Assembly: GCA_963664435.2 (NCBI GenBank)
Contig: CAXXKM010000002.1
Span: 416,001 to 480,000 of the forward strand
Length of the DNA: 64,000 bases
Direction of reading: 5' to 3'
From: Longimicrobiales bacterium
Lineage (GTDB): Bacteria > Gemmatimonadota > Gemmatimonadetes > Longimicrobiales > Gaopeijiaceae
Shown: piece by piece, positions 45,572 through 63,335 of the stretch
Numbering within the stretch: the stretch's first letter is position 1
Layout of the letters: each line of letters begins with the position of its first letter
Made by a program: the position numbers and the translations under genes
The notes under the pieces: model-generated
Database searches by the model: none
What the model was told of the DNA's origin: nothing
The model's input: the letters and a program-made list of their open reading frames with translations, nothing else

Positions 45572-47857
45572 ATGTCCCCTGAAACAGGGTTGAGACCGAT
45601 GTCCACTCGCTCTTCCATGTCCCGCCGACTCGCCGTCGGCCTGCTTCCCATACTCATCGCGCTCGCGGCGACACCCGCGCAGGAAGCTCCGACCATGCTG
45701 GGCTTCAGCCCCGCTTCCGCAGCAACCCAGCGCGGTCTCGAGTCCCGCTTCGACACGCATATCAGCGCGGGCGACATCGAGGAGTGGATGCGCTACCTGG
45801 TGGAGAAGCCCATCTACACCGGTTCGCCCCACAACATCGAGACCGCGCACTGGCTGGTGGAGCAATTCGAGTCATGGGGCTTCGAGGCGCGGCTGGACGA
45901 GTATCACGTGCTCTATCCCACGCCGCGCATCCGGGAGCTGGAGCTGCTCGAGCCGACCCGCTACACGGCCCAGCTGCGCGAGCCCGCGCTGGAAGAGGAC
46001 GCTTCATCGCGGATCGAGGAGGACCGGCTCCCGCCCTTCAACGCCTACTCGGCGGACGGCGATGTCACCGGCGAGCTCGTCTACGTCAACTACGGCATCC
46101 CGGCGGACTATGAGGAGCTCGAACGCCGCGGCATCAGCGTCGAAGGCAGGATCGTGATCGCGCGGTACGGGGGATCGTGGCGCGGCATCAAGCCCAAGGT
46201 CGCCGCCGAGCACGGCGCCATCGGCACCATCCTCTACTCCGATCCGCGGGACGATGGCTACTTCCAGGGTGATGTCTATCCGGAGGGCCCGTACCGGATG
46301 GAGCACGGGGTACAGCGCGGCGCGGTGCAGGACATGCCGCGCTATCCCGGGGACCCGCTGACGCCGTTCGAGGGAGCCACCGCCGAGGCCGAGCGCTACA
46401 CGGTGGAGGACGCCCCGACGATCATGAAGATCCCGGTGCTGCCCATCTCCTACGCCGATGCTCTGCCGCTGCTGCGCGCGATGGAAGGTCCGGTGGCGCC
46501 GGCGGCGTGGCGCGGGGCGTTGCCGATCACCTACCACATCGGGCCGGGACCGGCGCGCGTGCGCCTGCACGTCGAGTTCAACTGGGACATCACGCCCGCC
46601 TACAACGTGGTCGCGGTCATGCCCGGCTCCGAGCAGCCCGACCAGTGGGTCATCCGCGGGAACCATCGCGACGGATGGGCGATGGGCGCGGCTGACCCCA
46701 TCTCCGGGCTGGTGGCGCTGATGGCCGAGGCGCGCGCGGTCGGCGAGCTGGCCCGGGCCGGGTCGCCGCCGAAGCGCACTGTCGTGTATGCCGGGTGGGA
46801 CGCGGAGGAGCCGGGCCTGCTCGGGTCCACCGAGTGGGCGGAGCACCACCGCGACGAGCTGCACGAGAAGGCGGTCATCTACATCAACACCGACGGCAAC
46901 GGGCGCGGCTTCCTGTCGGCGGGCGGGTCGCACACTCTCGAGCGCTTCGTGAACGAGGTGGCGAAGGAGGTCACCGATCCCCAGACCGGCGTCTCCGTGT
47001 GGGAGCGGGTGCAGGCCCGGCGGGCGGTGCAGGGCGACCCCAGCGCCCAGCGCGACGGCGACCTGTGGATCGCGCCGCTCGGGTCGGGATCGGACTACAC
47101 GCCCTTCCTCCAGCACCTCGGCATCGCCTCGCTGAACATCAGCTTCGGAGGCGAGAACGGGGGCGGATCCTACCACTCGCAGTACGACACCTTCGAGCAC
47201 TACACCCGTTTCGGCGATCCCGGCTTCCAGTACGGCGTGGCGCTGGCGCAGGTCGCGGGACGGCTCACCCTCCGCTTCGCCAACGCCGACGTCCTGCCCC
47301 TGCGGGCCGCGAACTTCGCCGAGACCGTCGACCGTTATCTGGACGAAGTGCGCGATCTCGCCGACGAACTGCGCGCGGAGACCGAGCGCTACAACCGCCT
47401 TGTGGAGATGGACGCCTTCCGGCTGCAGGCCGATCCGACCCGGACCTACATCCCCCCTTCGATGCACGATGAGGTCCCGTTCTTCAACTTCGCGCCGGTG
47501 CAGAACGCGCTGGGCGAGCTGGAGGGCGCGGCGGAGGCGCTGGACCGGACGCTGGCCGGTGCGCTCGCAGGGGGATCGCTGTCGGCGGGCCGCGCGGCCG
47601 AAATCGACGCTCTTCTGCTCAAAGTCGAGCAGGCGATGACCGACACCGACGGGCTCCCCGGGCGCCCCTGGTTCCGCCACACCATCTACGCGCCCGGCTT
47701 CTACACCGGGTACGGCGTGAAGACGCTGCCGGGCATCCGCGAGGCCATCGAGCAGCGGGAGTGGGAACTGGTCGAGCCGCAGATGGAACGGCTCGCGCGA
47801 GCGCTGGAGCGGGTGGCGGAGCTGCTGCGCCAGGCTGCGGGAGGGACGGTGTCGTAG
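45572..47857 (+). CDS. M28 peptidase (glutamate carboxypeptidase II-like, PA and TfR-dimer domains)
   Basis: GNHRDGW, GAADP.SG, WDAEEPGLLGSTEW, GSGSDY, YHSQYD. Confidence 0.93.
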   Translation: MSPETGLRPMSTRSSMSRRLAVGLLPILIALAATPAQEAPTMLGFSPASAATQRGLESRFDTHISAGDIEEWMRYLVEKPIYTGSPHNIETAHWLVEQFESWGFEARLDEYHVLYPTPRIRELELLEPTRYTAQLREPALEEDASSRIEEDRLPPFNAYSADGDVTGELVYVNYGIPADYEELERRGISVEGRIVIARYGGSWRGIKPKVAAEHGAIGTILYSDPRDDGYFQGDVYPEGPYRMEHGVQRGAVQDMPRYPGDPLTPFEGATAEAERYTVEDAPTIMKIPVLPISYADALPLLRAMEGPVAPAAWRGALPITYHIGPGPARVRLHVEFNWDITPAYNVVAVMPGSEQPDQWVIRGNHRDGWAMGAADPISGLVALMAEARAVGELARAGSPPKRTVVYAGWDAEEPGLLGSTEWAEHHRDELHEKAVIYINTDGNGRGFLSAGGSHTLERFVNEVAKEVTDPQTGVSVWERVQARRAVQGDPSAQRDGDLWIAPLGSGSDYTPFLQHLGIASLNISFGGENGGGSYHSQYDTFEHYTRFGDPGFQYGVALAQVAGRLTLRFANADVLPLRAANFAETVDRYLDEVRDLADELRAETERYNRLVEMDAFRLQADPTRTYIPPSMHDEVPFFNFAPVQNALGELEGAAEALDRTLAGALAGGSLSAGRAAEIDALLLKVEQAMTDTDGLPGRPWFRHTIYAPGFYTGYGVKTLPGIREAIEQREWELVEPQMERLARALERVAELLRQAAGGTVS

Positions 47858-47862
47858 GGAAT

Positions 47863-47967
47863 GGAGTACCCACTACCGGTAGTAAGGAACTCCCGATTCG
47901 TGTTCTTGTTGCGAGCGTTTGACTTACGGGATTTCTAGATCCGATTCCCGCTGTTCGATTCCCGCTG
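47863..47967. other. att end next to integrase copy 3
   Basis: Imperfect palindrome GGAGTACCCACTACC|GGTAGTAAGGAACTCC; CGATTCCCGCTG at 47942 and 47956. Confidence 0.7.
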
Positions 47968-47973
47968 ATCGGA

Positions 47974-49140
47974 TCAGGCGCCAACCGTGCGGGGACGGCT
48001 GTCCAGAGCCGTCCGGAGTTGTACCTCGTCGGTGTGCTGATAGCACCGCAGGACGGTTCGGGCTTCCTTCCAGCCGCCGAGATCGCAAAGCACCTTGAGC
48101 GGCAGGTCCATCAAGTCGGACGCGAACTTCCGCCTGAGCGAGTGCCAGCCTCTCCCGCGCTTGGGCTCCAACCCGGCCCGCCGCTCGGCGGTCTTCCACC
48201 AAGTGCTCACCCGCGAGCGGCTCACGCATGTCGACGGATCCCGCGGCGCGGGCAGAACCGGCGCGTCTCCGGCTCCGCGAGCATGCCTCCGCGCCTCCTC
48301 CAAGGCAGTGATCGTCTCGTTGGTCACGGGCGTCCAGTGCTCGTATCCGGTCTTCTCGTGCTCGGCCCGCCAAAGAATGGTCCTGCCCTCGAATTTGATG
48401 TCGGACCACCGCAGCTTCCGGATGGCACCGATCCGGTGCCCGGTCTCGTGGGCGAGCACGAGCGCCACGTGGAAGCGCCAACCCACCTGCTTGGACACCT
48501 TCAGGAGTGCCTCGTATTCCTCGTCGGAAAGCACGACCCGGGTGGGGTTCTTCATCTTCGGCCTCCCGAGACCCTTCAGCGGGTTGAATCCGATGAGCAA
48601 ACTTCCGTGCTCATCTCTCGACTTGGCGGCCCAGTTGAGGATCGCGATCAGGATCTTCAGGTCGAGTGCGATGGTGCTGTCGGATGCGGGCTTGCCACTC
48701 GGTCCGATCCTGCCCGCGCGCCGCTCCCGGATGAACCGGTCCCAGTCGCGCCGGGAAAGCGTCTCGGGCCTTCGGTCGCGCCCGAGGAAGTCGAGGAACA
48801 TCCGCATCACGGCCCGGTTCTGGCGCTGGGTCCGCCTCTGCTTCGTCGGGACCACCTCCTCACCGTAGATTTCAAAAAGCTTTTCCAGGGTGAGTGGCTC
48901 GGACGCGGCTTCGGCCTTGCTGTTGGGCTCGTGAACCGCTAACCCCGCAGCGGCCTCGTCGGCCTGCCGCTTTGCCCGCGACCAGTCGCGGTGCTTGAGG
49001 GACCGGGTGAGCCTGCGCCCGTTCTCTCGCCACTCGATCTGGTAAAGGCCGGTCTTCGGGTCGGGGAAGATCCTCACCCGGTTGCGGCCCCACTCGCCGG
49101 CGCTGTAACTCCGCCGGCCACGTTTAGTGCGTGCCATCAT
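47974..49140 (-). CDS. Tyrosine recombinase/integrase (copy 3, intact)
   Basis: ETGHR, HEKTG, HSLRR, LGGW, CYQ; GGAGG RBS. Confidence 0.92.
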   Translation of the reverse strand: MMARTKRGRRSYSAGEWGRNRVRIFPDPKTGLYQIEWRENGRRLTRSLKHRDWSRAKRQADEAAAGLAVHEPNSKAEAASEPLTLEKLFEIYGEEVVPTKQRRTQRQNRAVMRMFLDFLGRDRRPETLSRRDWDRFIRERRAGRIGPSGKPASDSTIALDLKILIAILNWAAKSRDEHGSLLIGFNPLKGLGRPKMKNPTRVVLSDEEYEALLKVSKQVGWRFHVALVLAHETGHRIGAIRKLRWSDIKFEGRTILWRAEHEKTGYEHWTPVTNETITALEEARRHARGAGDAPVLPAPRDPSTCVSRSRVSTWWKTAERRAGLEPKRGRGWHSLRRKFASDLMDLPLKVLCDLGGWKEARTVLRCYQHTDEVQLRTALDSRPRTVGA

Positions 49141-49232
49141 TCGATTCCTCCGATGATGGACCGCACGATCTGCGCGTCCGAAACCTCGCGGAGGGGCGTT
49201 GCCCGCGCCAGATCGAGCCCTGCCCGTAGCCA

Positions 49233-50828
49233 TCAGCGGCTCGGACCGTGATCGCGACCGCGGCTCCGCCCGCGCTGGCTCAGCGCTGCTATCATCATCA
49301 CAAGGTCGCGGCGAGCGTGCCGTACGACTCGGCTAAGCGTGTAACTTGCTCGTCCAGCCACTCGATTCGCCTTTGCAAGGCTGCGTTCTCCCCGCTCTGC
49401 CTCTCGACGTGCTGCCGCAAGGCGTCGTTCTCCTCGCTTTGCCGCTCGACGCGCCCGCGCAAGGCTTCGACGTGCTGCCTCAAGCCGTCGACCTGCCCGG
49501 AGTGCCGCCGCTGCTCCGTCTCGTACTGCGCGGACAATCTCTTCAAAGCCTCCGTCAACTGCCGTTCCAACTCGCTCATACAGTTCCCTCACTCTCTCGA
49601 CAGCTTCAACGCCCGACGATCCCCGTCCACCCACCACCAGGGCGGATCGGCCAGCACCTCGTCCGGCACCACCACGAACCGCTCGCCCTTGATCTCGCGG
49701 AACACGAGCCCCCAGGTGTCCTCCTCCATTTGGGCCAGTGTCCGCCGGGCGTCCTCGATGTCCCGGCCCAGTTCGGCGCGGGTCTCGATCCGGTCCTGGA
49801 TGCTCATCGACAGCCAGCGCATCGTCGCCCAGCTTCCGCCGAAGAAACCGATCCAAAGGCTCAGGCCTACGATCAGGGGCCGTTGCCACGCCTTGACCAG
49901 CAGCTGGCGCATCCTCCCGGCCGCCTCCTCCGTATCGCGCTCGATGGAACGCAGCGCGTTCCTCGCGGCGCGCCGCGAGTTCTCGCCGAGCCTTTCGAGC
50001 TCGCTCGCGGTCAACTCCTCGACCTCCCGTCTCTCGCTCTCCAGCCTCCTCCGCAGCCGCTCGGTCAAATCGTTCGCGGTCGAAGTTCTCTCCATACAGT
50101 TCTCCTTTCAGCCGCCACCGGTCGCCGGTCTCGGGATCCAGCGCGGTCAGGTAGTCCTTGCCTTGGCGCGGCACTTCTAGGCCCGCCTCCCGAAGGGCGG
50201 CGACGACATCGGCCCGGTTCCGCGCCGTGCCGTGCTCGACGCGCTGGAGCAGGTAGTCCCGGATCAGGTCGCGAGGGGAGGCTTCGAGCCGGAGCCCGGC
50301 CCGCAGTCGGGTCGCTTCGATGTAGGCGCGGTGGCCGGGTTGCTGCACCCTGGCCCGCGCCGGATCGTCCGGGCGAGCCCAGCCGTGTTCGTGGTTGAAG
50401 GCGTCCCGGAGCGGGCCGAAGGTCTTCTCCCAGCCCGGCGGGGCAATGTTGAGGCTCCGGCCGGTCTCCAGGTCGCACCGCGCGGCGAGGACGTGGACGT
50501 GCGCGCCGCCGCCGCGCTCGCGGTGCAGCACGGCGGTCCAAGCGTATCGGTCGGGCTCCAGTCCCGCCCAGGCCGTGTCCTCGAAGGCGTCCACGACCGC
50601 CTCGATCTCGGCGTCGGTCGGTTCGTCCTCCGGCGCCCATGCGATCACGCCGGACGTGTACCTGTGCTCGAACGCCAGCGTGTCGGCGACGGCGGCCACC
50701 TGGTTCGGATCGCCCCGAAGGACCTCGACGCCCTCGCGCGGCTTCCCGGCGGCGTCCCGCTCGCCGAGGAGGTAGCCAGCCGCCTTGCCGGCCGATCCGG
50801 TCCCGTGCGCCAGAAACTTAATCAGCAT
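49233..50828 (-). CDS. mbeA: ColE1-like (MbeA/MobA) relaxase
   Basis: MLIKF..G.G....YLLG, VLRGDP, YTSGVIAW, H...HVH, FNHEHGWARPDDP, RLKGELY. Confidence 0.9.
   Translation of the reverse strand: MLIKFLAHGTGSAGKAAGYLLGERDAAGKPREGVEVLRGDPNQVAAVADTLAFEHRYTSGVIAWAPEDEPTDAEIEAVVDAFEDTAWAGLEPDRYAWTAVLHRERGGGAHVHVLAARCDLETGRSLNIAPPGWEKTFGPLRDAFNHEHGWARPDDPARARVQQPGHRAYIEATRLRAGLRLEASPRDLIRDYLLQRVEHGTARNRADVVAALREAGLEVPRQGKDYLTALDPETGDRWRLKGELYGENFDRERFDRAAAEEAGERETGGRGVDRERARKARRELAARREERAAFHRARYGGGGREDAPAAGQGVATAPDRRPEPLDRFLRRKLGDDALAVDEHPGPDRDPRRTGPGHRGRPADTGPNGGGHLGARVPRDQGRAVRGGAGRGAGRSALVVGGRGSSGVEAVERVRELYERVGTAVDGGFEEIVRAVRDGAAAALRAGRRLEAARRSLARARRAAKRGERRLAAARREAERGERSLAKANRVAGRASYTLSRVVRHARRDLVMMIAALSQRGRSRGRDHGPSR
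49298..49579 (-). CDS. mbeD: MbeD/MobD-like coiled-coil protein overprinted in the relaxase gene
   Basis: MSELERQLTEALKRL...ENAALQRRIEWLDEQV. Confidence 0.8.
   Translation of the reverse strand: MSELERQLTEALKRLSAQYETEQRRHSGQVDGLRQHVEALRGRVERQSEENDALRQHVERQSGENAALQRRIEWLDEQVTRLAESYGTLAATL
49589..50095 (-). CDS. mbeB: MbeB/MobB-like protein overprinted in the relaxase gene
   Basis: Coiled coil, TM segment, TWGLVF....GERFVVVP; position as in ColE1. Confidence 0.75.
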   Translation of the reverse strand: MERTSTANDLTERLRRRLESERREVEELTASELERLGENSRRAARNALRSIERDTEEAAGRMRQLLVKAWQRPLIVGLSLWIGFFGGSWATMRWLSMSIQDRIETRAELGRDIEDARRTLAQMEEDTWGLVFREIKGERFVVVPDEVLADPPWWWVDGDRRALKLSRE

Positions 50829-51155
50829 CGGAATCCGGGCCTTCGGCGGGGGACAGTGCCGCGAGCGCCCGCCTGATGGCGACGAGGTGGCCGATCACCT
50901 CGACCGCCTCGATGGCCCCCCGGTGGGTGTTCGCCACCGGGCGATCTGGTTGACGTTGTTCCCGATCCGCGCCACTTGCTGGACGCGCTCGCGCTCGACC
51001 TCGGCGTGCGCCACGGTCCACGTGCGCGTCCGGCCCACCGACCGGCGCACCAGATCCGACAGCGTGAGGCCCGCGGCGCGCGCCTTGGCGTGCCACTCGG
51101 CACGCTCCGCCTCGCTGGCGCGAACCTTCACCCAAACGGCGCGTCCGGCGCTCAT
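50818..51155 (-). pseudogene. mbeC: MbeC/MobC relaxosome protein, 1-nt frameshift near 50934
   Basis: RHH-like N-terminus and RIGNNVNQIARW; continuation ANTH...LVAIRRAL is in another frame. Confidence 0.85.
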
Positions 51156-51236
51156 GGCGCGCCGTTTCCGTTGCGGGGGTCTGAGGGGGCAAGGCCCCCC
51201 GCCAGCCTCTCCTGGGGACACGCGAAGTGTGGCCAC

Positions 51237-51257
51237 GGAGAGTATGCTGGCTTGTCC
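51237..51257. other. oriT nic site, ColE1-like
   Basis: GGAGAGTATGCTGG^CTTG resembles ColE1 GGAGTGTATACTGG^CTTA, upstream of mbeC in the expected orientation. Confidence 0.75.
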
Positions 51258-51969
51258 TCCTTAGCGGCGTCCAACGACCCCGTGGGCGACGTGTCCGAGA
51301 CCCGGCGGAGACCGCCGCCAATGCGGTGGCGGCGCACCACCGCACGCGCTCCGGGGAACCCGTTCAGACGGGCCTTGCCAAGCGCGGCCAACGGTGGGAT
51401 GGTGGCCAGCAATACCGCGCCATCCATGTACCCCCGAAGCCAAAGCGGCGACCGATCCCGCCAGTGTCCCTGGCGTGGGGCGCTGGCACCGGTTCCGCAG
51501 TGGGGTGTATCAACCTGACTACGTGCGTCTTCTCCGGTGTTTCGCCTCGTTTGCTCGTGCTGCCCTCCACGCTTCGGTGACCCGAAAGGCGACATACTAC
51601 GGAGTTCATCCGCGATTGGTTTCAATCCAATCGGCGGCGACGAAGGACCCCGAAGCCGAGCCGCGTCCACCTTCGGGGCTTCGGGGACGGGGCCATCGCC
51701 AAGGTCCGGGCCGGACGCCTTCATCACCAATGCCGTCGGGGACGGCGCGTCGGTGTCCACGAGGGAAGTGCCGACCCGCGTGCTGAACAGGTACTTCTGC
51801 GTCTCCATACCTGGAACGCTGAAGAGCCGCTCGCCGGCAAGTCAACCCGTCGAAAACCTCCTATTGGCCGATAACGTCCGGGGATGTCCGATAACGTAAA
51901 GTAGCCGGCGCCGGTCGTCGCCAACGGGGCGGAAAAACGCCCCCGTAACGCCGCCCGCGCTCCTCCGTC

Positions 51970-52450
51970 CGTCGCTTCGTATGCCAGCCGGAACGCGGTG
52001 TCCGCCAGCCACCGCCGGAAGTCCGGGTTGTCGGCGAAGAGCTTGAAGAGTTGCGTGTTGTCCCGCACCATCCCCAGCACCGCCCGCTCCGTCGCCTTGT
52101 CGGACTCGACGCGGGCGTTTTCCTGGTCGGAGTTCTGCCGGGCGTTCTCGAACCGGGCGACCTTCGCCACCGAGGCCGGAATGTCCTGCGTGGCCGTCCG
52201 GATGACCCTGTCGGGATCCCCCCACTCGATTCCGCCGAACCGATCGTTGAACTCCTCGATGATCGCCAACAGACGGCCCGTCTCGCTCTCGCCCTTGCCT
52301 CCGCCCTCGCCCGTCCTGACCGGATTGATCTCCGCGTCGTCGTCATTGAGGATGATCCTCCGCATCCGGTGCGTCTCGACGCGGTAGCTTTCCATTCGAT
52401 CCTCTCGGGGATGCGCTTCGACAGATCGGGCTCCTCAGGCCGGCGGAGGA
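51970..52450 (-). pseudogene. hsdR: C-terminal remnant of a type I restriction enzyme R subunit
   Basis: DLSK.I..I / MESYRV...LLAIIEEFNDRFG.IEW...NSDQENAR...LFKLFADNPDFRRWL. Confidence 0.8.
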
Positions 52451-52850
52451 GCTGGAACCGGGCTCTTGGGGATACTCCACCGGTTTGGAGTACGCGCCGG
52501 ATCAGGGTGCGGGCGAGCTGGGGATCAGGGCTCCGGCTCGGGTGACAGCCCGGTGGGGACGGTTCTACGCCAACGCACATTCGGGATCGTGAGGACTGTG
52601 CGGACGAGGAGGTGACCGAGGCCATTCTCCCCACGGCACGCATACGGGAGAAATCAGGCTCCAGGTCTCCCACCTCGCGCCGAGGAGCGGCCCCGACCAG
52701 ACCTACCGGGCCGCCCCCTCTCCCACGGTGTACCTGCGGTCCGCGACGGGGATTGGATGCGACGATGGAGTCGCTTAGGTTTAGATCTTAGAGGTGGCGC
52801 GTCAGGTTCGTTTCCGCATCGTTCGCGAAGGGAGAGGGGGGTTTCAGCGC

Positions 52851-53453
52851 GTGACACCGCAAGTCGTTGACCTAGCGTTCCGCCTCACTGGTAGCGACCT
52901 GCCCACGGATCACGGGTACTTCCTTTTTGCCGCTATCTCGAAGAACCTAGCTCCTTTTCACGCGGCTTCCGGCTGGGGTGTCCATCCGGTTCGCGGCACA
53001 CCCTTGGGGAACGGCACGCTCGCCCTTTCCGAGTCCAGCCGCCTCGTGATGCGGTTGCCAGCCGACGATATCCGGCGCGCCATTTCTCTGGCAGGGAAAC
53101 GGTTGGACATCGGCGGTCGGACCGTTCGTGTGGGAGTGCCCGAGATTCGTCCTCTTCGGGCCGCTCGGCACCTGTTCTCGCGTCTTGTCACGATCAAGGG
53201 CTTCGCCGATGCGCCGGACGAGTTTGCCGAAGCGTGTACTCGGCAGCTTGAGACCCTGGCCGTGCGGGAGGCTCAAATGGGCGTGGATAAGCGGCGCGTG
53301 ATGGACGTCAAGGGATACACCATCGTCGGCTTTTCGGTTCGGCTTTCCGGCCTGAACGAGGGGGATTCGGTGCTTGTCCAAGAACGCGGGCTCGGTGGAA
53401 AACGGAAGATGGGTGCCGGGATCTTCGTACCGATTCGTCCCAAGCATGCCTGA
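52851..53453 (+). CDS. cas6: Type I-MYXAN Cas6 (Cmx6)
   Basis: VDLAF.L.G..LP.DHGY.LF.AIS; C-terminal QERGLGGKRKMGAGIFVP. Confidence 0.93.
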   Translation: MTPQVVDLAFRLTGSDLPTDHGYFLFAAISKNLAPFHAASGWGVHPVRGTPLGNGTLALSESSRLVMRLPADDIRRAISLAGKRLDIGGRTVRVGVPEIRPLRAARHLFSRLVTIKGFADAPDEFAEACTRQLETLAVREAQMGVDKRRVMDVKGYTIVGFSVRLSGLNEGDSVLVQERGLGGKRKMGAGIFVPIRPKHA

Positions 53454-55677
53454 GGTGCCTGCTTTTCCAGTGCTGCTCGCGAAGTCCCGGGTTTCTGCAC
53501 AAGGCGAAGCCATTACGGTCGCCGACCATTGTGTGGAGGCGGCGGATTGCGCGGCAGCGATTGTCGAGGCGGCCGGCTCCAGGCTTGCGGCGTTTTTCGG
53601 GCTGGACGATTCGGACGAGGAGCGACTCGAGTCGCTCCTCCGCATCGCTGCGCTCATGCACGACCTGGGGAAGGCCGGAGCTTCATTCCAAGCCCAGATG
53701 CACGAGGCGGCGCGCGAGGCCCACCCGTTCAGGCACGAGGCGCTCTCGGTCGCCGTGTGCATGGATCCGGCGGGGCTTGGATGCTGGATCCGGCGAGCGA
53801 TTCCTGACGCTTGCGGTCGGGCGGCCGTGCTCGTTGCGGTGATGGGTCATCACGTCCGTGCGTCGCCGTCGGCACCCGCGGCGCGGACGCCGCGGGACGA
53901 GGTCGTGTACCTCGACCACCCCTCTCTCTCGTCCCTCTGGCAACATCTCGCGCGCCTTACCCGGGCCCAGCGGGTTCCCGAGCCGGAAAGACTCACCCTT
54001 CCGAGAGCCGCTTGGGAGGACCTGCTGTTCGAGTACGTCATGTTTGTCCGGGACGCCGTTCGCTCGGCGCCGCAGGCCGAGCGAGCGAGCCTGGTGTCGC
54101 TCGCCGCCTGCTGCAAGGCGGTTCTCGTCGCTGCGGATACGGTGGCGTCCGCGCGGATCAGCGGGCAGGATACTGCGGCCTTATGGGCCAAGACCGTTCT
54201 TCGCCGAGGCCTACAGTCGGACGAACTCGACCGAATCGTGGATGCGCGCCTCGGTGGACGGCCACCCTACCCCTTTCAGGAGAAGGTGGCCGCCTCCGAC
54301 GAGCGGGTGACTCTCGTTGAAGCCGGATGCGGGAACGGGAAGACTCTTGCCGCCTACATGTGGGCCCGACGAAGTGCCGTCGGTCGTCGCCTCGTGTTCT
54401 GCTATCCGACGACAGGCACGACTTCGGCCGGGTTTCAGGACTACCTCCTCGCCCAGACCGAACTCGAGCGCGCCCTCATGCACGGCCGCGCGTCGGCCGA
54501 CATCGAGCACATCCTCGATAATGGCGCAGCGTATGAGGATGATTCGCTTTGGGTCGCCGACGTGCTGGACCTCTGGGGAACGAAAGTGGTGGCGTGTACG
54601 GTGGATTCGGTTCTCTCGCTACTGGCTTGCTGGCGTCGTGCCCTCGCTGCCGCTCCCGTCTTCGCGCAATCGGCGTTCGTGTTCGACGAAGTGCATAGCT
54701 ACGACGATCAACTCTTCGGCGCTTTTCTCGCGTTTCTTCGCTGGACCCGAGCATCCTGCCTCGTGATGACGGCGAGCCTGTCCGACGCGCGAAGGGCCGC
54801 GATCGAAAAAGCGTACGGGAGACCGCTCCAGCCGATCGGGGGAGAACCCACCATGGAGGATGCGGAGCGCTACCGCATCGCACGTGTGCACCCAGAAGAA
54901 GTTGCCGAGTGGGTCGAGAAGTCCCGCAAGAGCGGGGGCAAGGTCCTGTACGTCGCCAATACGGTCGCGCGTGCGCTCGTGGCATTCAACCGTTTCGGAA
55001 CCCGCTGGAGCCCTGACGCTCGGCTCTATCACAGCCGCTTCAGGTATGAGGATCGAGTACGGGTCCAGGGAGAAGTGCTGGAGCTCTTTCGGAGGCGCGG
55101 CCCGGCCTTTGTCGCTGCCACGCAGGTCTGCGAGATGTCCCTTGACATCAGTGCCACCCTCCTCATCTCGGAGCTGGCGCCATTTCCTGCGCTCGTGCAG
55201 CGGCTGGGCCGCCTGAACCGGCGCGCTCGCGAGCCGGTGGCAGTCTGCCCAGCTCTCATCGTCGAGCCCCCGGACCCGCAACCCTACGACAAGGAGGCGC
55301 TGTCGGTGGCGGACCGGAAGCTCGTGTCCCTGGATGGCCAATCGTCATCGCAGCGCGATCTCGCGCGTGCGCTGGCCGGGATGCCGGACGGACCGTACGA
55401 GGACCGCATCATGCCCCTGCTCAGCCCATTCGACCTCGCCGGGACTCAGCCCGGAATGTTGCGCGACGGCTCGGTGTCGATGCCGGTGGTTCGGGAAGAG
55501 GACCTTCCATGTTCGCGGAAACGCATCACGCGAGCCGAACTAGTTCGGCTCACGATTCCGATGCTTCTGCCGAAGGACCATGATGTAAGACGCTGGCCCC
55601 GCCTGCGGGGGACGATCGTGGCACCCGCCGGGAGCATCGACTACGATCCGGTAAGGGGTGCGCGATGGCGGAACTAA
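53446..55677 (+). CDS. cas3: Cas3 HD nuclease-helicase
   Basis: LLAKS, HDLGK, AGCGNGKT, DEVH, MTAS, QRLGRLNR. Confidence 0.95.
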   Translation: MPEVPAFPVLLAKSRVSAQGEAITVADHCVEAADCAAAIVEAAGSRLAAFFGLDDSDEERLESLLRIAALMHDLGKAGASFQAQMHEAAREAHPFRHEALSVAVCMDPAGLGCWIRRAIPDACGRAAVLVAVMGHHVRASPSAPAARTPRDEVVYLDHPSLSSLWQHLARLTRAQRVPEPERLTLPRAAWEDLLFEYVMFVRDAVRSAPQAERASLVSLAACCKAVLVAADTVASARISGQDTAALWAKTVLRRGLQSDELDRIVDARLGGRPPYPFQEKVAASDERVTLVEAGCGNGKTLAAYMWARRSAVGRRLVFCYPTTGTTSAGFQDYLLAQTELERALMHGRASADIEHILDNGAAYEDDSLWVADVLDLWGTKVVACTVDSVLSLLACWRRALAAAPVFAQSAFVFDEVHSYDDQLFGAFLAFLRWTRASCLVMTASLSDARRAAIEKAYGRPLQPIGGEPTMEDAERYRIARVHPEEVAEWVEKSRKSGGKVLYVANTVARALVAFNRFGTRWSPDARLYHSRFRYEDRVRVQGEVLELFRRRGPAFVAATQVCEMSLDISATLLISELAPFPALVQRLGRLNRRAREPVAVCPALIVEPPDPQPYDKEALSVADRKLVSLDGQSSSQRDLARALAGMPDGPYEDRIMPLLSPFDLAGTQPGMLRDGSVSMPVVREEDLPCSRKRITRAELVRLTIPMLLPKDHDVRRWPRLRGTIVAPAGSIDYDPVRGARWRN

Positions 55678-57263
55678 CTTGGTCTGTCACAGCGCCCGGC
55701 CTCAACGCCCTCGAGCGCTGCGGCCTCGGAGCGATGGCCGCCACGATCGATGCCGCGGATCAGGAGGGGTTCGACCTGACGCCGCTCGACGCATCGTTCG
55801 ATCACGATTCCGTTATGCTCAGCTGGCCCGACGACTATCGGCCCAGCGCAGCACTCGCGAAGCTCATCAGGTTCGCTTGGCAGGCTCGGCAATCCACGAG
55901 CCCCGACGGCCTCGGGGTGCTCTACCTTCCGGCGATCCACCGGGGCTCCGCCAGCGATTCCTATCTGGAGCGCTTGCTTGAGAACAGCGGCATCCTCCGG
56001 ACGTTTCTCCAACATCCGCGAATCCAACCGAAGACCCGTCCGCCGACACGACAGACGATTGAGTTGGAGGGAGCGCGCTCAATCGAAGTCCGTTTCGTGG
56101 AGCCCAGCACGAACCTCAAGTACGTCTCTGACTTCTCGGGCAAGCTCTTCGGCGGGACAGGTAACCTCAAAGCACGCGTCGACCTCGCGCAGTACATCAT
56201 GCCGGGGGGGACCGCACGACACGGCGGCGAGGAGTCTTGGACCGGTTCGGCCATCCAGGCCGTTCCTCTTTTCTTCGCGCCGATCGGTTGCTTCTTCCTT
56301 AGGGCACAGGAGTCCTCCTGGGTGGTCGTGGTGCCTGATGTCACCGACCTGGCGGCGTTCGCATCAGTGCGGCCGCTCGTAGGCATCGGCTGGAAGGAGG
56401 CGGAGGTTCGAAGCCTAGAGGACGCCGGACTCCGGGTCGCCGTCGCTTATCGGACCCAAACTACGACGCGCCGTCTCGCCCTCAGAGGATTCGAGGTGTT
56501 GAGGGTGGGTCGTGTGGCTTGGAACAAGCAGCAGAGCGTCCGCTCGCACTTCTGTCGGTTGCGGCCCGGCATGAAGGAGTTGGACGAGTTCGAAACGGTG
56601 CTCCGACACCTGTCGAACCGATACTGCACCCGGAAGGACGGAGAGGGCGACTTCGTTTCAGTGCCGACGCCACGAGGGAGGATCGCGGCCAACCTCGTGC
56701 ACGGCCACTACTGGTACCGCTCCCTGTTCGACATCCCGAAGGAAGACCGCGAGGAAGTGAAGAACCTGAGCCGAAGAAACGAGTCGGAAGAACGAGCCTG
56801 GTTCCGACTCGTCGGCTACGAACGAAGAGCACTGACTGCTATCGCAGAGGAGTTGCCGATGGACGCTGATCGAGAGTTGGACCGGCTGTTCCAACACGCC
56901 ATCCATGAGGCGATGGCGCGCCGGTTCAGGCAAGAAGCAGAGTACGCGAAGCGCGGTGCGAGGTCGATCCAGGACCGATGGGACGACTTTCGCGAGTCCT
57001 CCCGGCGACTGTTATCGAGATCAAATACCCGCTCCACGCTCCGGACGGCGATCGCGGGGTTCTTCGCGGAGGCCGGAGGTAGCCGAACGCTTCGGGAGAA
57101 CGCTCAGGCCATCTGGGCCTTCATAGATTCGCCCGCCACGTGGCGCCGGGCTCGGGATCTCGCCCTGTTCTCGGTAGTGACCTACCAGCGCAAGGCGGAT
57201 CCGGAAGAGGGCGAAGCAGAAAAGGGTGAGGGAGAGGTTGGGGATGTCGAGCAGAGCGATTGA
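55665..57263 (+). CDS. cas8: Large subunit Cas8a1/Cmx1 (MYXAN type)
   Basis: Lies between cas3 and cas7; PGGTARH, FFAPIGC, VVPDVTDL, VAWNKQQ, RGRIAANL, ARDLALFS..TY. Confidence 0.85.
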   Translation: MAELTWSVTAPGLNALERCGLGAMAATIDAADQEGFDLTPLDASFDHDSVMLSWPDDYRPSAALAKLIRFAWQARQSTSPDGLGVLYLPAIHRGSASDSYLERLLENSGILRTFLQHPRIQPKTRPPTRQTIELEGARSIEVRFVEPSTNLKYVSDFSGKLFGGTGNLKARVDLAQYIMPGGTARHGGEESWTGSAIQAVPLFFAPIGCFFLRAQESSWVVVVPDVTDLAAFASVRPLVGIGWKEAEVRSLEDAGLRVAVAYRTQTTTRRLALRGFEVLRVGRVAWNKQQSVRSHFCRLRPGMKELDEFETVLRHLSNRYCTRKDGEGDFVSVPTPRGRIAANLVHGHYWYRSLFDIPKEDREEVKNLSRRNESEERAWFRLVGYERRALTAIAEELPMDADRELDRLFQHAIHEAMARRFRQEAEYAKRGARSIQDRWDDFRESSRRLLSRSNTRSTLRTAIAGFFAEAGGSRTLRENAQAIWAFIDSPATWRRARDLALFSVVTYQRKADPEEGEAEKGEGEVGDVEQSD

Positions 57264-57304
57264 AACCAGGGCGAACTGAATTCAAACCAGAGCGGAGATC
57301 TACC

Positions 57305-58174
57305 ATGGCCCACCATCTCTTCGGAACGGTCCTCACGCCTCACGGCATTGCTTCGAACAATCGGGGCGAGTCAGCGGGCAACGTGACCACGTTGCAGAAG
57401 GTCATCAAGGACGATGGACTTTTCACGACTGTGAGCGCGGAGGCGATTCGCTATGCGATTCGCGAAGCGTTCACCGAGGGCGGCAAGGTCGTGAATCGGA
57501 GGATAACTTCCGGCGGGAGTGACTGGAGGGACCCGAAGTTCGAGAACTGGCAGGCGCATCTGGACGACGACCTGCTCGGCTTCATGCTCCCCGACAAGGA
57601 GACCGTGAAGCGTCGCGGTCGACTGGAAATCAGCCGCGCTTTGAGCACACGTCCGTGGCCGGGCGACGTGGTCTTCAATGCCGCCGCGGTCGGAGCGCAG
57701 TCATCGGGCAATCCCAAACGGTCATCGGGGAACCCCAATCCGATGCCCTACGGGACCGAGATTCACGCGACGCGCTATCAATACTCCTTCGCCCTCACGC
57801 CCGAGACTCTCGAGGATCGCGCGCGGGCCATTGACGCCCTAGAGAGCATACGAGATCTTCGCCGGGTGGCGGGCAACCACAGCCGGTATCTCTACGATTT
57901 TTCGCCCGACGCAGTCGTCCTGCGCTGGACGCATGACCCGGCTCCACGGCTAATGTATTGCTTCGAGCAGGATGAGCTCGGCACGATCACTGCCGATTCG
58001 CTCCTCTCGCGTGTCGGCTCCGGCGACATCGATGCGAGCGAAGTGGTGGTTGGAGGTCCTGCGGCTCTTGCTCTACGGGACCGCCTCACCGCTGCGGGCA
58101 GTCATTTCGCGGAAGGTGTGAAGGACGCCTTTCAAGAAATCGAGGCAAGACTGCGGCGTCACCTGGGACTCTAG
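57305..58174 (+). CDS. cas7: Cas7/DevR (Cst2)
   Basis: NNRGE..GN.TTLQK, TVSAEAIRYA, DDDLLGFM, VAGNHSRYLYDFSP. Confidence 0.95.
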   Translation: MAHHLFGTVLTPHGIASNNRGESAGNVTTLQKVIKDDGLFTTVSAEAIRYAIREAFTEGGKVVNRRITSGGSDWRDPKFENWQAHLDDDLLGFMLPDKETVKRRGRLEISRALSTRPWPGDVVFNAAAVGAQSSGNPKRSSGNPNPMPYGTEIHATRYQYSFALTPETLEDRARAIDALESIRDLRRVAGNHSRYLYDFSPDAVVLRWTHDPAPRLMYCFEQDELGTITADSLLSRVGSGDIDASEVVVGGPAALALRDRLTAAGSHFAEGVKDAFQEIEARLRRHLGL

Positions 58175-58176
58175 AG

Positions 58177-58800
58177 GTGGACGGGGTTGTGGTCAGCGCG
58201 TCCGTGCCGGTCGCCTCATTTCGTCCGTATCTGTCGAGGGATTACCAGGACACGTACCCGGCTCCTCCGCCAGCCACGGTGTTCGGCATGCTGCTCTCCC
58301 TCTGCGGCATCACGGAGGCGGCTCGCTCCGACTACGGAGGGACCGAACTCGCGATCATGGTGGATCGCGTTCGCGAGCCGTCCAGAGTGCTCAGGAAGCT
58401 CCGCCGGGATCCCGCTTCGCATAGGGGGCGCGGAATCGCAAAATACCGGCCCGACTACCAAGAACTGATCCTCGGACTTCGAGCGTGGATCGCAGTGCGG
58501 CAAGGTGACGCCGCTAGTGACCTCCCGGATTGTGTCCGGGACGCCTTGGAGCACCCCGAAAGCTTGGACCGCTACGGGGCGCTTTCGCTTGGCGAGAGCA
58601 CGTTCCTAGTCGACGAGATCGCAGTCTGCGACTCCCCGCCAGCAGGCGGCACCGTTCTCCACCCGGACGATACCGGATCGCTTACTCTTCCCGTCTGGGT
58701 CGACTACAAAGACCCATCGGCGACCAGGCTTCAACGATTCGGCCTCGTGGAGCGCCCCCTCGCAGAGGAGGACTATGTCCAAGTCGGACCGGGAGCCTGA
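58177..58800 (+). CDS. cas5: Cas5/DevS (Cmx5)
   Basis: VPVASFR, TYPAPPPATVFGMLLSL, RPDYQEL, LSLGESTFLV. Confidence 0.93.
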   Translation: MDGVVVSASVPVASFRPYLSRDYQDTYPAPPPATVFGMLLSLCGITEAARSDYGGTELAIMVDRVREPSRVLRKLRRDPASHRGRGIAKYRPDYQELILGLRAWIAVRQGDAASDLPDCVRDALEHPESLDRYGALSLGESTFLVDEIAVCDSPPAGGTVLHPDDTGSLTLPVWVDYKDPSATRLQRFGLVERPLAEEDYVQVGPGA

Positions 58801-60448
58801 CAGAAGAGGAAGCGGCGCCCTCGGGCTCCGATCGAATCCGACCGAGGATTCGCTCGACTTGGTGCCCGTAATGGCTCTTCACGCCCTCGCCTACTGCCCC
58901 CGCCTCTTCTACCTCGAGAACGTCGAAGGACAGCGTGTGGCCAACGCCAGGGTGTACGCTGGCCGCGAGCTTCACTCCTCACTCGAGCACAAGCACGAAG
59001 ACTCTCTGCACGTCGTCTCCTCCCGATTGGGGCTGCAGGGACGCGTCGATTTCATTCGGTCTGACAGGGAAGAGTTGATCCCTGTCGAGGTCAAGCGCGG
59101 GAGGGCGAAACGAACCGACACCGGACTCACTGGATGGCCATCTGACGTACTCCAAGTGGGTGCGTATGCCATGCTTTTGGAGGAATCTCTGGAAACCGCC
59201 GTTGGGCATGCACGCATCCACTACGCGCGTGATCGCGCTTGGGTTCACGTGGAGGTTACGGATGACCTCCGCCGCGACGTACAAGACGCAGTGGATGAGG
59301 CCAAGAGGCTCAGCGCGTCCTCACGACGCCCTCCGGTGGCCGAAAACGAGAACCTCTGCAAGCATTGCAGTCTCTCCGTGGTATGTTTGCCGGACGAGGA
59401 AAGGTTGGTCGAAAATCGGACGTTGCCGGCCCCGCCGGATGATGACCGTCAGGTGGTTCACGTCACCGACCCGGGATCGCGGATCGGGAAGTCTGCGCTG
59501 TGTCTCAGGGTTCGAGCGGTCGGTGGGAGCGTCACGGATCTTCCCATTGCGCAGGTTCACTCGGTCGTGCTGCACGGTAACGTCCAACTCACGTCGCAAG
59601 CTATCCGACTCTGCGTGCAACGTGGTGTAGGCGTGCACTGGTTGACCGGGAGTGGACGCTATCTCGGTTCGCTCGCAGCGTCCGTGGGGAATCCCACGCG
59701 TCGGATCCGCCAGTACGAGGCGCTACTGGACGCAGACACTCGCCTCAGACTGGTTCTCGCTCTCGTTTCGGCCCGGATCTGGAACCAATACCGCTACCTG
59801 CTGAGAGCCTCGCGCGGCAAGGAGCAACTCCGCGCGAACGTGCAGCCGTTCCTTCGGGAACTTCGGACTGCGACGCACCGTCTCAATCGGCAGTCCAACG
59901 TGGACTCGATCAGAGGGATCGAGGGGGCGGCCGGTCGAGCGTACCACGGCGGATTGAGGAAGCTCATACAGCCCCCGGAGTTCGCGTCTCAACGAAGGAC
60001 GCGACGACCAGCCCAGGATCCCTTCAATGCTCTTTTGAACTACTCGTATTCGCTCCTGCTGGCGAGGATTGCCAATGCCGTCGTGGCCTGTGGCATCGAC
60101 CCGCATCTAGGGTTCTACCACACGGATCGCTCGACGGCCCCACCGCTGACGCTGGACTTGATGGAACTGTTTCGCGTGCCCTTGTGCGACGTGGCGATTC
60201 TCGGTGCGATCAACCGACGTACCTGGCGGCTGAGTGACTTTGATTGTTCGGATCTCGGCGTGCGCCTGTCACGCCACGTCCGGACCCAGGTGATCGAGTT
60301 GTTCGAACGGCGGCTTGACGCCTCATGGAAGCATCCAGCCACACGCCACTCGCTGCCCTACCGAAAGGTGATCGAGTTGGAAGTCCAGCTACTGGAGAAG
60401 GAGTGGTCTGGATCAGAGGGTCAGTTCGCCCAAGCGAGGTTGCGATGA
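58775..60448 (+). CDS. cas1: Cas4-Cas1 fusion
   Basis: HALAYCPRLFY and CKHCSLSVVCLP (Cas4 Cys); RGIEG, LGFYH, LDLMELFR (Cas1). True start may be nearer 58860. Confidence 0.93.
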   Translation: MSKSDREPDRRGSGALGLRSNPTEDSLDLVPVMALHALAYCPRLFYLENVEGQRVANARVYAGRELHSSLEHKHEDSLHVVSSRLGLQGRVDFIRSDREELIPVEVKRGRAKRTDTGLTGWPSDVLQVGAYAMLLEESLETAVGHARIHYARDRAWVHVEVTDDLRRDVQDAVDEAKRLSASSRRPPVAENENLCKHCSLSVVCLPDEERLVENRTLPAPPDDDRQVVHVTDPGSRIGKSALCLRVRAVGGSVTDLPIAQVHSVVLHGNVQLTSQAIRLCVQRGVGVHWLTGSGRYLGSLAASVGNPTRRIRQYEALLDADTRLRLVLALVSARIWNQYRYLLRASRGKEQLRANVQPFLRELRTATHRLNRQSNVDSIRGIEGAAGRAYHGGLRKLIQPPEFASQRRTRRPAQDPFNALLNYSYSLLLARIANAVVACGIDPHLGFYHTDRSTAPPLTLDLMELFRVPLCDVAILGAINRRTWRLSDFDCSDLGVRLSRHVRTQVIELFERRLDASWKHPATRHSLPYRKVIELEVQLLEKEWSGSEGQFAQARLR

Positions 60449-60771
60449 GCGGTCGTGCCGTTCCACCAAAAGGTGCGGGACGGTGGTACTTGGTCTGCTA
60501 TGACGTTCGTGATCCGAAACGCCTTCGACGGGTTGCAAGGATGCTTGAGGGGCACGGGGAGCGCATCCAATACTCCGTCTTTCGATGCTGGTTGTCGGCA
60601 TCTGGACTCGAACGACTCCGCTGGGAGTTAACGGAAGACTGTGTGGCCCAAGAAGATGACGTGATCTTCATTCCGCTCTGCTCACGTTGCGTCGCAGGGA
60701 TCAGAGTCACTCACAGTGCTCTCAAGGAGGGCTCGTGGGAGACACAACGGGGGCGGGTTCGGATTCTGTAG
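60445..60771 (+). CDS. cas2: Cas2
   Basis: YLVCYDVRDPKRLRRV...GERIQYSVF. Confidence 0.95.
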   Translation: MSGRAVPPKGAGRWYLVCYDVRDPKRLRRVARMLEGHGERIQYSVFRCWLSASGLERLRWELTEDCVAQEDDVIFIPLCSRCVAGIRVTHSALKEGSWETQRGRVRIL

Positions 60772-60891
60772 TCTCGTGATTCAAGCATCGGGGGGGTACG
60801 GCAAACAAGGTCGCTTTTTGACAACAAGGAAACGGGGGTCCATGAAAAACTCCCTGCAAGAACGCTTGCCGCTTACCTTTACAGAGGAGCG
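60772..60891 (+). promoter_or_regulatory. CRISPR leader
   Basis: Lower-GC 120 bp between cas2 and repeat 1, TTGACA at 60818-60823. Confidence 0.7.
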
Positions 60892-61428
60892 GTGAGAACC
60901 GCTTTGATGCCGGAAGGCGTTGAGCACAGGCTTGCCGAGGTCACGCGCGAGGAGATGGATCGCGTGAGAACCGCTTTGATGCCGGAAGGCGTTGAGCACT
61001 GGGAGCGCGTGCGCACCTCTGCCGGAGCGCTGCTGGTGAGAACCGCTTTGATGCCGGAAGGCGTTGAGCACTGAGAGGCGAGTGCTGGAGCGCGCAGGAC
61101 GGGCGCTGTGAGAACCGCTTTGATGCCGGAAGGCGTTGAGCACAAGTGCAGTTCGTTGGTGCCGTTCCGGAACGCGGCGTGAGAACCGCTTTGATGCCGG
61201 AAGGCGTTGAGCACACCATCACCGGCGGCTGCGTGGCTGGCGAGTACGAAGTGAGAACCGCTTTGATGCCGGAAGGCGTTGAGCACAACGTGAGGATGTA
61301 CTCGTGAGCCTTGGCCGTCCGGGTGAGAACCGCTTTGATGCCGGAAGGCGTTGAGCACTAGAAGGCGCCGAAATTGCGCAGCACGACCCGGTGTGAGAAC
61401 CGCTTTGATGCCGGAAGGCGTTGAGCAC
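60892..61428 (+). CRISPR. CRISPR array: 8 identical 36-bp repeats, 7 spacers of 34-36 bp
   Basis: GTGAGAACCGCTTTGATGCCGGAAGGCGTTGAGCAC at 60892, 60964, 61036, 61108, 61179, 61251, 61323, 61393. Confidence 0.99.
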
Positions 61429-61757
61429 TACATAGACTGACCCCGTTTTCCGCCGTCGCTCCTACCAATGCCGTGGCGCTCGGGGGTTGGGGGTATTGCG
61501 TGTCTGGGGCTCTGGCGGACACCCTGAACCGACAGGTCCAAGAGAGGAACGGGATTCCCGCAGTTTGAGGCGATTTCCCTGCTGTTTCTGGACGACGAGA
61601 GCAGATGCGATTCAAGGGCAGAAAGCGCAGATCGTGCAGCCCTGTAAGTAGTTAGACGATTCGTTGCCCTGATTCGCGCTATTCTCAACCTGACCGGTAG
61701 TAGGGATGAGGAGGCAGGGAATCCTTGACAGGCTGTGGGCGTTTGCCTCTCTTGTAT

Positions 61758-61771
61758 GTGCAATATTGCAC
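61758..61771. promoter_or_regulatory. Palindromic operator of the TA operon
   Basis: Perfect 14-bp GTGCAATATTGCAC, 10 bp before the antitoxin ATG. Confidence 0.6.
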
Positions 61772-61781
61772 TGGAGAGCGA

Positions 61782-62213
61782 ATGACCACACAGGCCCTGG
61801 CTGAACATCTTGGGGGGCGGCAAGCTCTCGGCCGTGACATCCGGTCCGACCTCGACCTGGACGATGCGGTCCGGGCCGGGCTTCCCGTCAAAGCCGTTGA
61901 GACCGTGGTGAAGAACGGTGCTCTGCGCGCAACCGAACTTCATGCACTGGTCATCCCACGGCGTACGCTTGCCCACAGGAAGCGCCAGGGGAAGCGGCTG
62001 AGCAGCGAGCAGTCGGACCGCCTCACCCGGGTGGTCCGCGTCGTGGCCTCGGCGGAAGAAGCCATCGGCGACGGTGGAAAGGCAAGACGCTGGCTACGCA
62101 AGCCCAACCGTGCCCTCCAGGGACGGCGGCCACTGGATCTCCTGGCCAGCGATGTAGGCGCCCGCCTTGTGGAACAGGTGCTGGGGCGCATCGAGCATGG
62201 GCTGGGCGCGTAG
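61782..62213 (+). CDS. Xre/MbcA/ParS-family antitoxin
   Basis: IPRRTLAHRK, LSSEQSDRL.R, ARRWLRKPNRAL.G.RPLDLL, VLGRIEHG. Confidence 0.93.
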   Translation: MTTQALAEHLGGRQALGRDIRSDLDLDDAVRAGLPVKAVETVVKNGALRATELHALVIPRRTLAHRKRQGKRLSSEQSDRLTRVVRVVASAEEAIGDGGKARRWLRKPNRALQGRRPLDLLASDVGARLVEQVLGRIEHGLGA

Positions 62214-62249
62214 CGCCAAGGCCACGCTCCCGGACACGCGGAATCGCGC

Positions 62250-62705
62250 TTGGAACTCTGGCGGATCTCCCGCAAAGCCTACGCGGCCCTGGATGGCGAT
62301 GGGGCCCGCCTCTACGGGGCACGGTGGACTCCTCGCGGAACGCCCGCCGTCTACGCGGCTTCCCACCTCTCACTGGCAGCCCTGGAATACCTGGTGCACA
62401 TCGACACGGAAGACGCACCAGACGATCTGGTGGCTCTCCGCATAAGCGTTCCGGACGATGTGACCGAACTGGCCTACGCGCCTGCCTCTCTGCCCGCCGA
62501 TTGGCAGCAGACTCCGTCACCGCCCCAATGCCAGGCGATCGGTAGCGAGTGGGCCAGGAGGCGGGAGGAGCTGCTACTACGAATTCCATCCGTGCTCGTT
62601 CCCGAAGAGAGCAACGTGCTCGTGAATCCGATGCATCCGGACGCCGTCGGGGTCCGGGTCATCGGGTCTCGTCCCTTCTCCTACGATGTCCGATTGTTGA
62701 CCTGA
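62250..62705 (+). CDS. RES-domain toxin (NAD+ phosphorylase family)
   Basis: LWRI, GDGARLYGARW, LAALEYLVH, IPSVLVPEESNVLVNP.H. Confidence 0.93.
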   Translation: MELWRISRKAYAALDGDGARLYGARWTPRGTPAVYAASHLSLAALEYLVHIDTEDAPDDLVALRISVPDDVTELAYAPASLPADWQQTPSPPQCQAIGSEWARRREELLLRIPSVLVPEESNVLVNPMHPDAVGVRVIGSRPFSYDVRLLT

Positions 62706-63252: not shown

Positions 63253-63280
63253 TGGTGTAGTATGGTTCAGTATACTTGCT

Positions 63281-63323: not shown

Positions 63324-63335
63324 GCGGATCGGTCA

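Follow-up and report, generated by a model that had tools for sequence, protein, structure and literature searches.

Is the CRISPR-Cas (short palindromic repeats that are clustered and regularly interspaced, with their associated proteins) locus at positions 47875-61702 of the DNA analyzed here the cargo of a mobile element, and by which route could such an element move? The analyzed stretch, hereafter called the window, comprises 64,000 nucleotides of a Longimicrobiales bacterium (Gemmatimonadota; assembly GCA_963664435.2, contig CAXXKM010000002.1, positions 416,001 to 480,000). The segment encodes a tyrosine integrase, ColE1-like mobilization (mob) genes, a site resembling an origin of transfer (oriT) and a type I-MYXAN CRISPR-Cas system, and an original prediction had described it as a self-contained integrative and mobilizable element (IME). 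In all likelihood, it is indeed an IME, belonging to a genus-wide family and carrying the complete CRISPR-Cas system as exchangeable cargo. It has integrated precisely; its excision and its transfer by a helper are deduced steps that would follow from its gene content.

The boundaries of the island are formed by the following features (unstranded).

47875..47884, attL core, a 10-bp repeat forming half of an intergenic palindrome of the host, with the 7-bp overlap CCGGTAG at 47876-47882
47885..47973, integrase-proximal end with two putative arm-type motifs (47943, 47957) and a GTAAGT box (47922, reverse), kept downstream of 27 integrase copies
61546..61692, far end with arm-type-like motifs (61553, 61574) and a family box with GTAAGT (61644), aligned with 28 siblings
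61693..61702, attR core with the 7-bp overlap at 61694-61700, found by repeat comparison

The repeat ACCGGTAGTA is located at both 47875-47884 and 61693-61702, with 13 of 14 positions matching upon rightward extension, exactly as predicted. It is the sole exact repeat of at least 10 bp between 47841-47990 and 61431-61760, and two of its five occurrences in the 4.5-Mb genome are those at the island. A fourth copy of the motif GATTCCCGC, already recognized at 47943, 47957 and 61553, lies at 61574 in degenerate form. Inside each core, 38-44 bp away (first given as about 50 bp), the GTAAGT box is likewise present. The island is 13.8 kb long, and a circle joined at the cores would measure 13,818 bp.

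The flanking M28 peptidase gene occurs in three of the 18 other genomes of the genus that served as comparison set (89-91% identity). One of these, G001, shows synteny on either side and does not contain the island. It contains a single core, preceded by the left flank of attL and included in 19 identical letters that cover the attR core and right flank; the sequence diverges 9 bp past the core and rejoins at window position 62705. Hence, attL and attR restore the empty site of a relative, which supports the view of an IME with CRISPR-Cas cargo. The empty site had been expected to join the M28 gene to an Xre-RES operon; the flanks and single core were found as anticipated, but Xre-RES is absent from G001. 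Several empty copies of the target, an intergenic palindrome, exist in the genome holding the island, often as doublets about 21 bp apart. Its count per genome (0-8) is not clearly higher than that of a reversed-pattern control (1-7), and therefore only the intergenic, often doublet arrangement is used here. We conclude that the island integrated precisely, its target being an intergenic palindrome of the host; a 7-bp overlap is repeated at its two ends, each of which contains arm-like motifs on the inner side.

Contigs assembled from public runs cross attL in contig set X4, which may represent the source sample, and attR in X4, X5, and X6. The predicted attP and attB junctions are absent from the genome assembly, and no circle or empty-site junction is found among the 15 joints listed (of 25) in contig sets X4-X7, where contigs drop rare forms and document presence only. 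Read depth in X4 (33 over cas, 36-46 over the flanks) is uninformative on excision, and the M28 flank in X7, almost without coverage, was left out. None of the public runs listed as holding the sequence is an RNA run.

The integrase that would act on these ends is encoded next to attL.

47974..49140, minus strand, tyrosine integrase of 388 aa from the second ATG (PF00589, E 2e-18; phrog_1, E 5e-49)

The island thus has its own integrase, in which R236, K263, H333-x-x-R336, W357, and Y367, which we take to be the catalytic residues, are all intact. It is no isolated protein: the genome contains 28 integrase matches (E <= 1e-60) and 10 relaxase matches, the integrase is present in 17 and the relaxase in 15 of the 18 other genomes, roughly 275 integrase copies exist across the genus, and int and mbeA are adjacent in many copies throughout the genus. 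A search of the genome with profiles of the two ends yielded 30 integrase-proximal and 47 far ends. An opposing far end lies within 60 kb of 23 of the 30 integrase-proximal ends, and 22 of these 23 pairs share an identical junction 7-mer (18 in register, four shifted by one base), compared to 31 of 1375 non-neighbour end pairs; the profiles were derived from these same ends, with the junction 7-mers falling outside the modelled columns. Identical 7-bp overlaps combined with arm-like repeats represent the lambda-type pattern. The family uses about 15 target types, among them the anticodon loops of tRNA-Val and tRNA-Pro (read by eye). Target type mostly tracks the integrase clade, yet the closest paralogue (84% identity) has another overlap. 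Twenty-one other elements with the same end pairing are integrated without this cas operon. The family is present in multiple copies and has many cargoes, CRISPR-Cas being one of them, and the island is not a unique element. Among the at least 120 integrase homologues listed, the only two named proteins belong to Ca. Palauibacter, and the runs holding the sequence are labelled sponge metagenome; the host is probably a sponge-associated member of the Gemmatimonadota. The literature searched contains no description of this integrative-element family (the words integrase, conjugat- and transpos- do not occur in the Palauibacterales paper PMC10469786), and neither the integrase nor Cas7 gave a match in viral contigs.

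Family ends are also found inside siblings. Thirteen of the 77 ends adjoin backbone-like sequence, and they cluster at mbeD, at oriT, in the integrase gene and just upstream of the latter. Genome-wide, four such ends are found close to codon 58 of the integrase (window-equivalent 48967-48972) and two just upstream of this gene; the mbeD start has another two, as does oriT, beside the nic-like site. This nesting is a visible route for the re-pairing of integrases, ends and cargo.

Further observations on the family concern other loci of this genome, given by its contigs C1, C2, and C3. A second dispersed intergenic palindrome (C1:121696, C3:891915 and others) is the target of six integrases of one clade, with about eight further empty copies. 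At C3:808-815 an integrase-proximal end abuts a far end across a common overlap, either as an attP-like junction or as a tandem integration. The elements C2:111572-141260 and C3:59477-72486 have near-identical integrases and ends and the same 7-bp overlap, with different flanks and lengths, which points to recent movement within the genome. A 16.4-kb sibling that has a 7-bp overlap of its own (C2:410302-426689) contains two more family integrases, at window positions 1352-2263 and 9427-10689.

The second module of the island resembles the mobilization region of ColE1.

49233..50828, minus strand, MbeA-like relaxase of 531 aa with Tyr19 and H102/H110/H112 (PF03432; 31% identity to ColE1 MbeA over 254 aa, E 2e-26)
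49298..49579, minus strand, mbeD, nested in mbeA (PF04899 over cut-off)
49589..50095, minus strand, mbeB, nested in mbeA (23% identity to ColE1 MbeB over 159 aa, E 8e-9)
50818..51155, minus strand, mbeC, ribbon-helix-helix relaxosome accessory protein (MobC/NikA; PF21983, PF05713), frameshifted near 50933 in this assembly
51200..51257, plus strand, oriT-like site with an inverted repeat and a nic-like 22-mer (51236-51257; 18/22 identical to ColE1)

The order mbeC-mbeA and the nesting of mbeB and mbeD within mbeA are those of ColE1. The nic-like 22-mer precedes mbeC, its orientation to mobC is that of ColE1, and the nick presumably falls at the position of the ColE1 nick. The oriT core is kept in 10 of 11 copies and is interrupted there in the eleventh. 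The relaxase shares 52-57% identity with relaxases of small mobilizable plasmids and scores 84 with NF047848 (cut-off 500). Its metal site consists of three histidines (H102/H110/H112) that align with H, E, and N of ColE1 MbeA, presumably the HEN metal-binding triad of that protein. Because of this three-histidine site, the relaxase is ColE1-like and not MbeA proper. The predicted ColE1-type mob module is therefore borne out in gene order, nesting and oriT, but not in the metal site or in mbeC, of which the frameshift had been missed. Similarly, the term 'self-contained' goes too far: the island has an integrase, a relaxase and an oriT, the latter recognized by likeness to ColE1, but mbeC is frameshifted in this assembly and no VirB or type IV coupling protein (T4CP) family was detected among the island open reading frames (ORFs) scanned, which is the expected lack of an internal type IV secretion system (T4SS) in an IME.

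One could also envisage a small ColE1-like plasmid that became integrated and neighbours the integrase by chance. The ColE1 layout of the mob operon and the small mobilizable plasmids among the best plasmid matches would suit this scenario. As in the original prediction, no rep gene was found: the island ORFs scanned hold no rep-type Pfam domain and there is no Rfam match, although a divergent replicon could escape such searches. Moreover, int and mbeA are neighbours across the genus and the ends fit the att architecture of the integrase family, making such an accidental plasmid insertion very improbable.

The cargo proper occupies the remainder of the island.

52794..53453, plus strand, cas6/Cmx6 (TIGR02807, 181 bits against a cut-off of 99)
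53374..55677, plus strand, cas3 with HD nuclease and helicase, motifs present (TIGR01596, TIGR01587 over cut-off)
55665..57263, plus strand, cas8a1/Cmx1 (TIGR03485, TIGR03486 over cut-off), with a possible internal start at 56859 (putatively Cas11-like)
57305..58174, plus strand, cas7/DevR (TIGR02585)
58177..58800, plus strand, cas5/Cmx5/DevS (TIGR02586, 147 against 112)
58775..60448, plus strand, cas4-cas1 fusion (TIGR03983, 367 against 358; TIGR00372)
60445..60771, plus strand, cas2 (TIGR01573, PF09827)
60772..60891, plus strand, probable leader, from its position between cas2 and the first repeat
60892..61428, plus strand, CRISPR array of eight identical 36-nt repeats and seven spacers of 34-36 nt (repeat search)

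All seven I-MYXAN cas genes exceed their NCBIfam cut-offs. The system thus comprises the effector and cas3 genes, cas4/1, cas2, an array and, judged by position, a leader, and is complete as had been claimed; the proposed order of integrase, mob, oriT, cas genes and array also holds according to family-profile matches and the array search. The cas genes have a GC content of 63.2%, against 68.0% for both genome and backbone, and the Cas8 family occurs in none of the 18 other genomes. No spacer target was found in the own genome (no spacer reaches 27 matches), 101 family genomes gave only repeat matches and weak partial matches, and a search of 50,697 phage records, with IMG/VR outside its range, gave no target. 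An exact-repeat scan of the species genomes returned zero hits, and the prophage terminase, used as a lead to host phages, gave one weak match in 19 genomes. The genome has two further type I CRISPR-Cas systems outside family ends (C2:498805-509900 and C3:1204700-1215600, one with GSU0053/GSU0054 genes), and none of their 57 spacers matches this element. At C2:517105, the chromosome is identical to spacer 14 of the C3 array (34/34 positions).

With related Cascade genes on a mobile element, as in type I-B CRISPR-associated transposons (CASTs), Cascade might guide the integrase to its target. We take MYXAN to be linked to the I-B systems captured by Tn7. The presence of the module at two unrelated sites (see below) would agree with such guidance, and I-B systems are among those captured by Tn7-like elements, as stated in PMC11656645. 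Type I-B CASTs are recognized by TnsABC/TniQ and by the loss of cas3 and the adaptation genes. The island, in contrast, retains cas3, cas1, cas2, and cas4, and thus its nuclease and adaptation modules, and no Tns/TniQ domain was detected among the ORFs scanned. No spacer matches the element or its flanks at more than 24/34 positions, and the end pairing is that of the 21 elements without this cas operon. We therefore agree with the earlier view that nothing points to RNA-guided integration and consider a Cascade-directed integrase barely credible; a tyrosine integrase sets the site, and CRISPR-Cas would provide ordinary adaptive immunity.

The exchangeable nature of this cargo is suggested by a second strain. 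Three identical metagenome assemblies (L045-L047), representing one strain and counted once, encode oriT, mob, the hsdR remnant described below, cas and the array at 94.8% identity over 8.9 kb. Their integrase is only 72% and their far end 79% identical to those of the island, and the junction differs. The DNA past this junction is 98% identical to C3, within an HNH gene that is uninterrupted in both copies of the genome holding the island. The arrays (seven spacers in the island, 31 in the other strain) have no spacer in common. Contig set X7 appears to be the same variant. From these alignments, the CRISPR module has apparently moved, as it is found in two integrase/att frames at two sites. 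A cas operon beside Xre-RES and devoid of int and mob, an arrangement that would contradict the original prediction, was not seen; in the other strain cas also stands beside int and mob. More distant copies of the cas operon (Cas8 70% and 78% identical) show no match to this integrase or mob within about 21 kb and adjoin imuABC or other integrases and insertion sequences. Between the two strains, identity falls to 78-84% in the 5' part of cas8 (window 55529-56128), compared with 93-100% elsewhere in the operon; this divergence likely reflects either local replacement or fast evolution of the region that would read the protospacer-adjacent motif (PAM).

A trace of a probable previous cargo, also missed by the original prediction, is preserved between oriT and cas6.

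51724..52395, minus strand, remnant of the C-terminal part of HsdR, a type I restriction subunit (50% identity, E 8e-35, with homology in the first 140-159 codons)

It points to an earlier restriction cargo. In the closest backbone (genome G011), an intact type I restriction-modification (R-M) system and AbiE hold the slot occupied here by cas, in an orientation opposite to that of the remnant. Among the cargoes of siblings are type I R-M, McrBC, GmrSD and fibronectin/cadherin proteins (adhesins), and some siblings carry a conjugation cluster. Family members resembling integrative and conjugative elements (ICEs), with VirB/T4CP genes, are located at C1:704725-736255, C3:540415-583629 (disrupted by McrBC, a mob element and a further integrase), C3:1152310-1202464, and C1:1570000-1590000. 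The third of these encodes, in a row, VirB2, B3, a B4-like protein, B9, B10, B6, B8, a coupling-protein-like gene, B11, and ArdC. No own relaxase was identified among the scanned ORFs of the ICE-like members. According to PMC9282650, unrelated helpers, IncP and F among them, mobilize mob operons of the ColE type, and use of a resident VirB cluster is therefore plausible.

Several observations weigh against the interpretation as a transferable IME. The sibling VirB/T4CP cluster is a candidate helper with putative recognition of this relaxosome; its T4CP matches are weak (E 1e-7 to 1e-9), and a search for T4CP/VirB4 with PF02534 and PF03135 gave no match, although other families did. Informative breakpoints come from one of the three congeners with an M28 orthologue (G001), since G009 and G006 diverge directly past the M28 stop. 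A second element at the target palindrome was not found in the 18 other genomes with one strict pattern. In this copy only (one of 11 compared), mbeC is frameshifted with an altered conserved motif. The copy in the other strain, of which the left end is not reached, may be immobile, since its integrase is split at codon 269 by another family end. In the main rival explanation, the island would have integrated once, the present copy would no longer be transferable, and cas would have reached two sites through recombination among siblings in one lineage and not through conjugation. The mbeC frameshift, the interrupted integrase, the patchy identity across int-mob (74-98%), the family ends adjoining backbone-like sequence and the closeness of the strains, with flanks at 98%, all fit such a history. 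We nevertheless regard it as unlikely, given that the island retains its integrase, att cores, arm motifs, relaxase and oriT in intact form, that the genome encodes nine intact mbeC paralogues, and that the frameshift, located at a short run of G, may have arisen by a mistake in the assembly.

For the favoured IME, the following sequence of events can be proposed. The integrase would recombine attL with attR to release the non-replicating circle, an Mbe-type relaxosome would nick oriT, and the cas genes would lead into the recipient with mob entering last. The channel would be supplied by a co-resident sibling with the same integrase family, VirB and a coupling protein and, if the mbeC frameshift is real, MbeC would be provided in trans by a near-identical paralogue. 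The integrase would then insert the circle at a site with a matching overlap. On the longer term, the cas-array block may have entered a slot that formerly held a type I restriction system, and may since have been carried by at least two integrase/att frames, probably via nesting and recombination among siblings. We tentatively extend this to a broader picture, which we hold to be possible but somewhat less than an even bet: an undescribed, genus-wide network in sponge-associated Gemmatimonadota, in which ICEs, IMEs and bare cargo elements would all be headed by one integrase family, whose cores are low in information and whose 7-bp overlaps can be interchanged. Its members would repeatedly insert in dispersed palindromes and in siblings (integrase, mbeD, oriT), re-pairing integrases, ends and cargo. 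A full adaptive immune system would travel through this network, switching integrase and site while acquiring spacers, and would be exported by the T4SS members of the family itself.

CRISPR-bearing islands and IMEs are already in print, and the general idea is thus known. The Vibrio CRISPR islands GI-24 (17 kb, type I-E), VPI-6, and GIVchS12 (PMC6360697, PMC5109276) share with our island a tyrosine integrase, attL/attR, an empty site in relatives and a complete CRISPR-Cas cargo, which in GIVchS12 replaces other cargo on a common backbone. They are described as non-self-mobilizing and bound to one fixed site, and the word relaxase is absent from PMC6360697. The present island differs by its own relaxase operon and oriT, its type I-MYXAN system and its two integrase/site combinations; excision of Vibrio islands was seen by PCR, whereas that of this island is predicted from sequence. 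Among IMEs, Table S2 of PMC10201445 includes predicted examples with types I-F1 (Photorhabdus, 52 kb), I-C (Frankia, 19 kb), and I-E (Cyanothece, 30 kb), and Cas accounts for 11.8% of island defence systems in PMC10484663. The defence-carrying IMEs of both papers have in common with the island an integrase and relaxase without T4SS, next to defence cargo. The Table S2 rows are automated calls, in contrast to the mapped ends reported here; an I-MYXAN or Gemmatimonadota case is not among its listed rows, though such rows may exist. The main texts of PMC11656645, PMC12479173, and bioRxiv 10.64898/2026.06.24.734381 offered no closer case in the parts consulted. The ColE1 mob region (NC_001371) shares gene order, nesting, the relaxase domain (31%), the nic-like site (18/22) and the lack of an own coupling protein. 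Unlike ColE1, the island is integrated and no replicon, has H-x7-H-x-H in place of H, E, and N, and has a frameshifted mbeC.

The wider family and the switch of integrase and site raise this island above a routine defence island. For the most part, the movement of complete CRISPR-Cas systems from one bacterium to another has been deduced from phylogenetic patchiness; in the present case, a single operon is observed in two integrase/att frames and at two sites that are reciprocally empty, consistent with whole immune systems being swappable cargo. The vehicle is compact (13.8 kb), its ends are mapped, it has a relaxase and an oriT, and the genome also provides candidate helpers, so that the route is directly testable in E. 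coli. In addition, the closely related integrases of the family (63-84% identical), for which about 15 target types are mapped, form a natural panel for asking how the specificity of tyrosine integrases changes.

The right flank of the island includes the Xre-RES toxin-antitoxin pair, a module of about 1 kb (window 61712-62705) that is 99% identical in X7, where its contig begins at 61718 and continues into about 320 unrelated letters, indicating another left neighbour. Because it is missing from the empty site of G001, we regard Xre-RES as an independent neighbour and a separate indel. A NYN gene further downstream (window 63276-63971) is missing from G001 as well.

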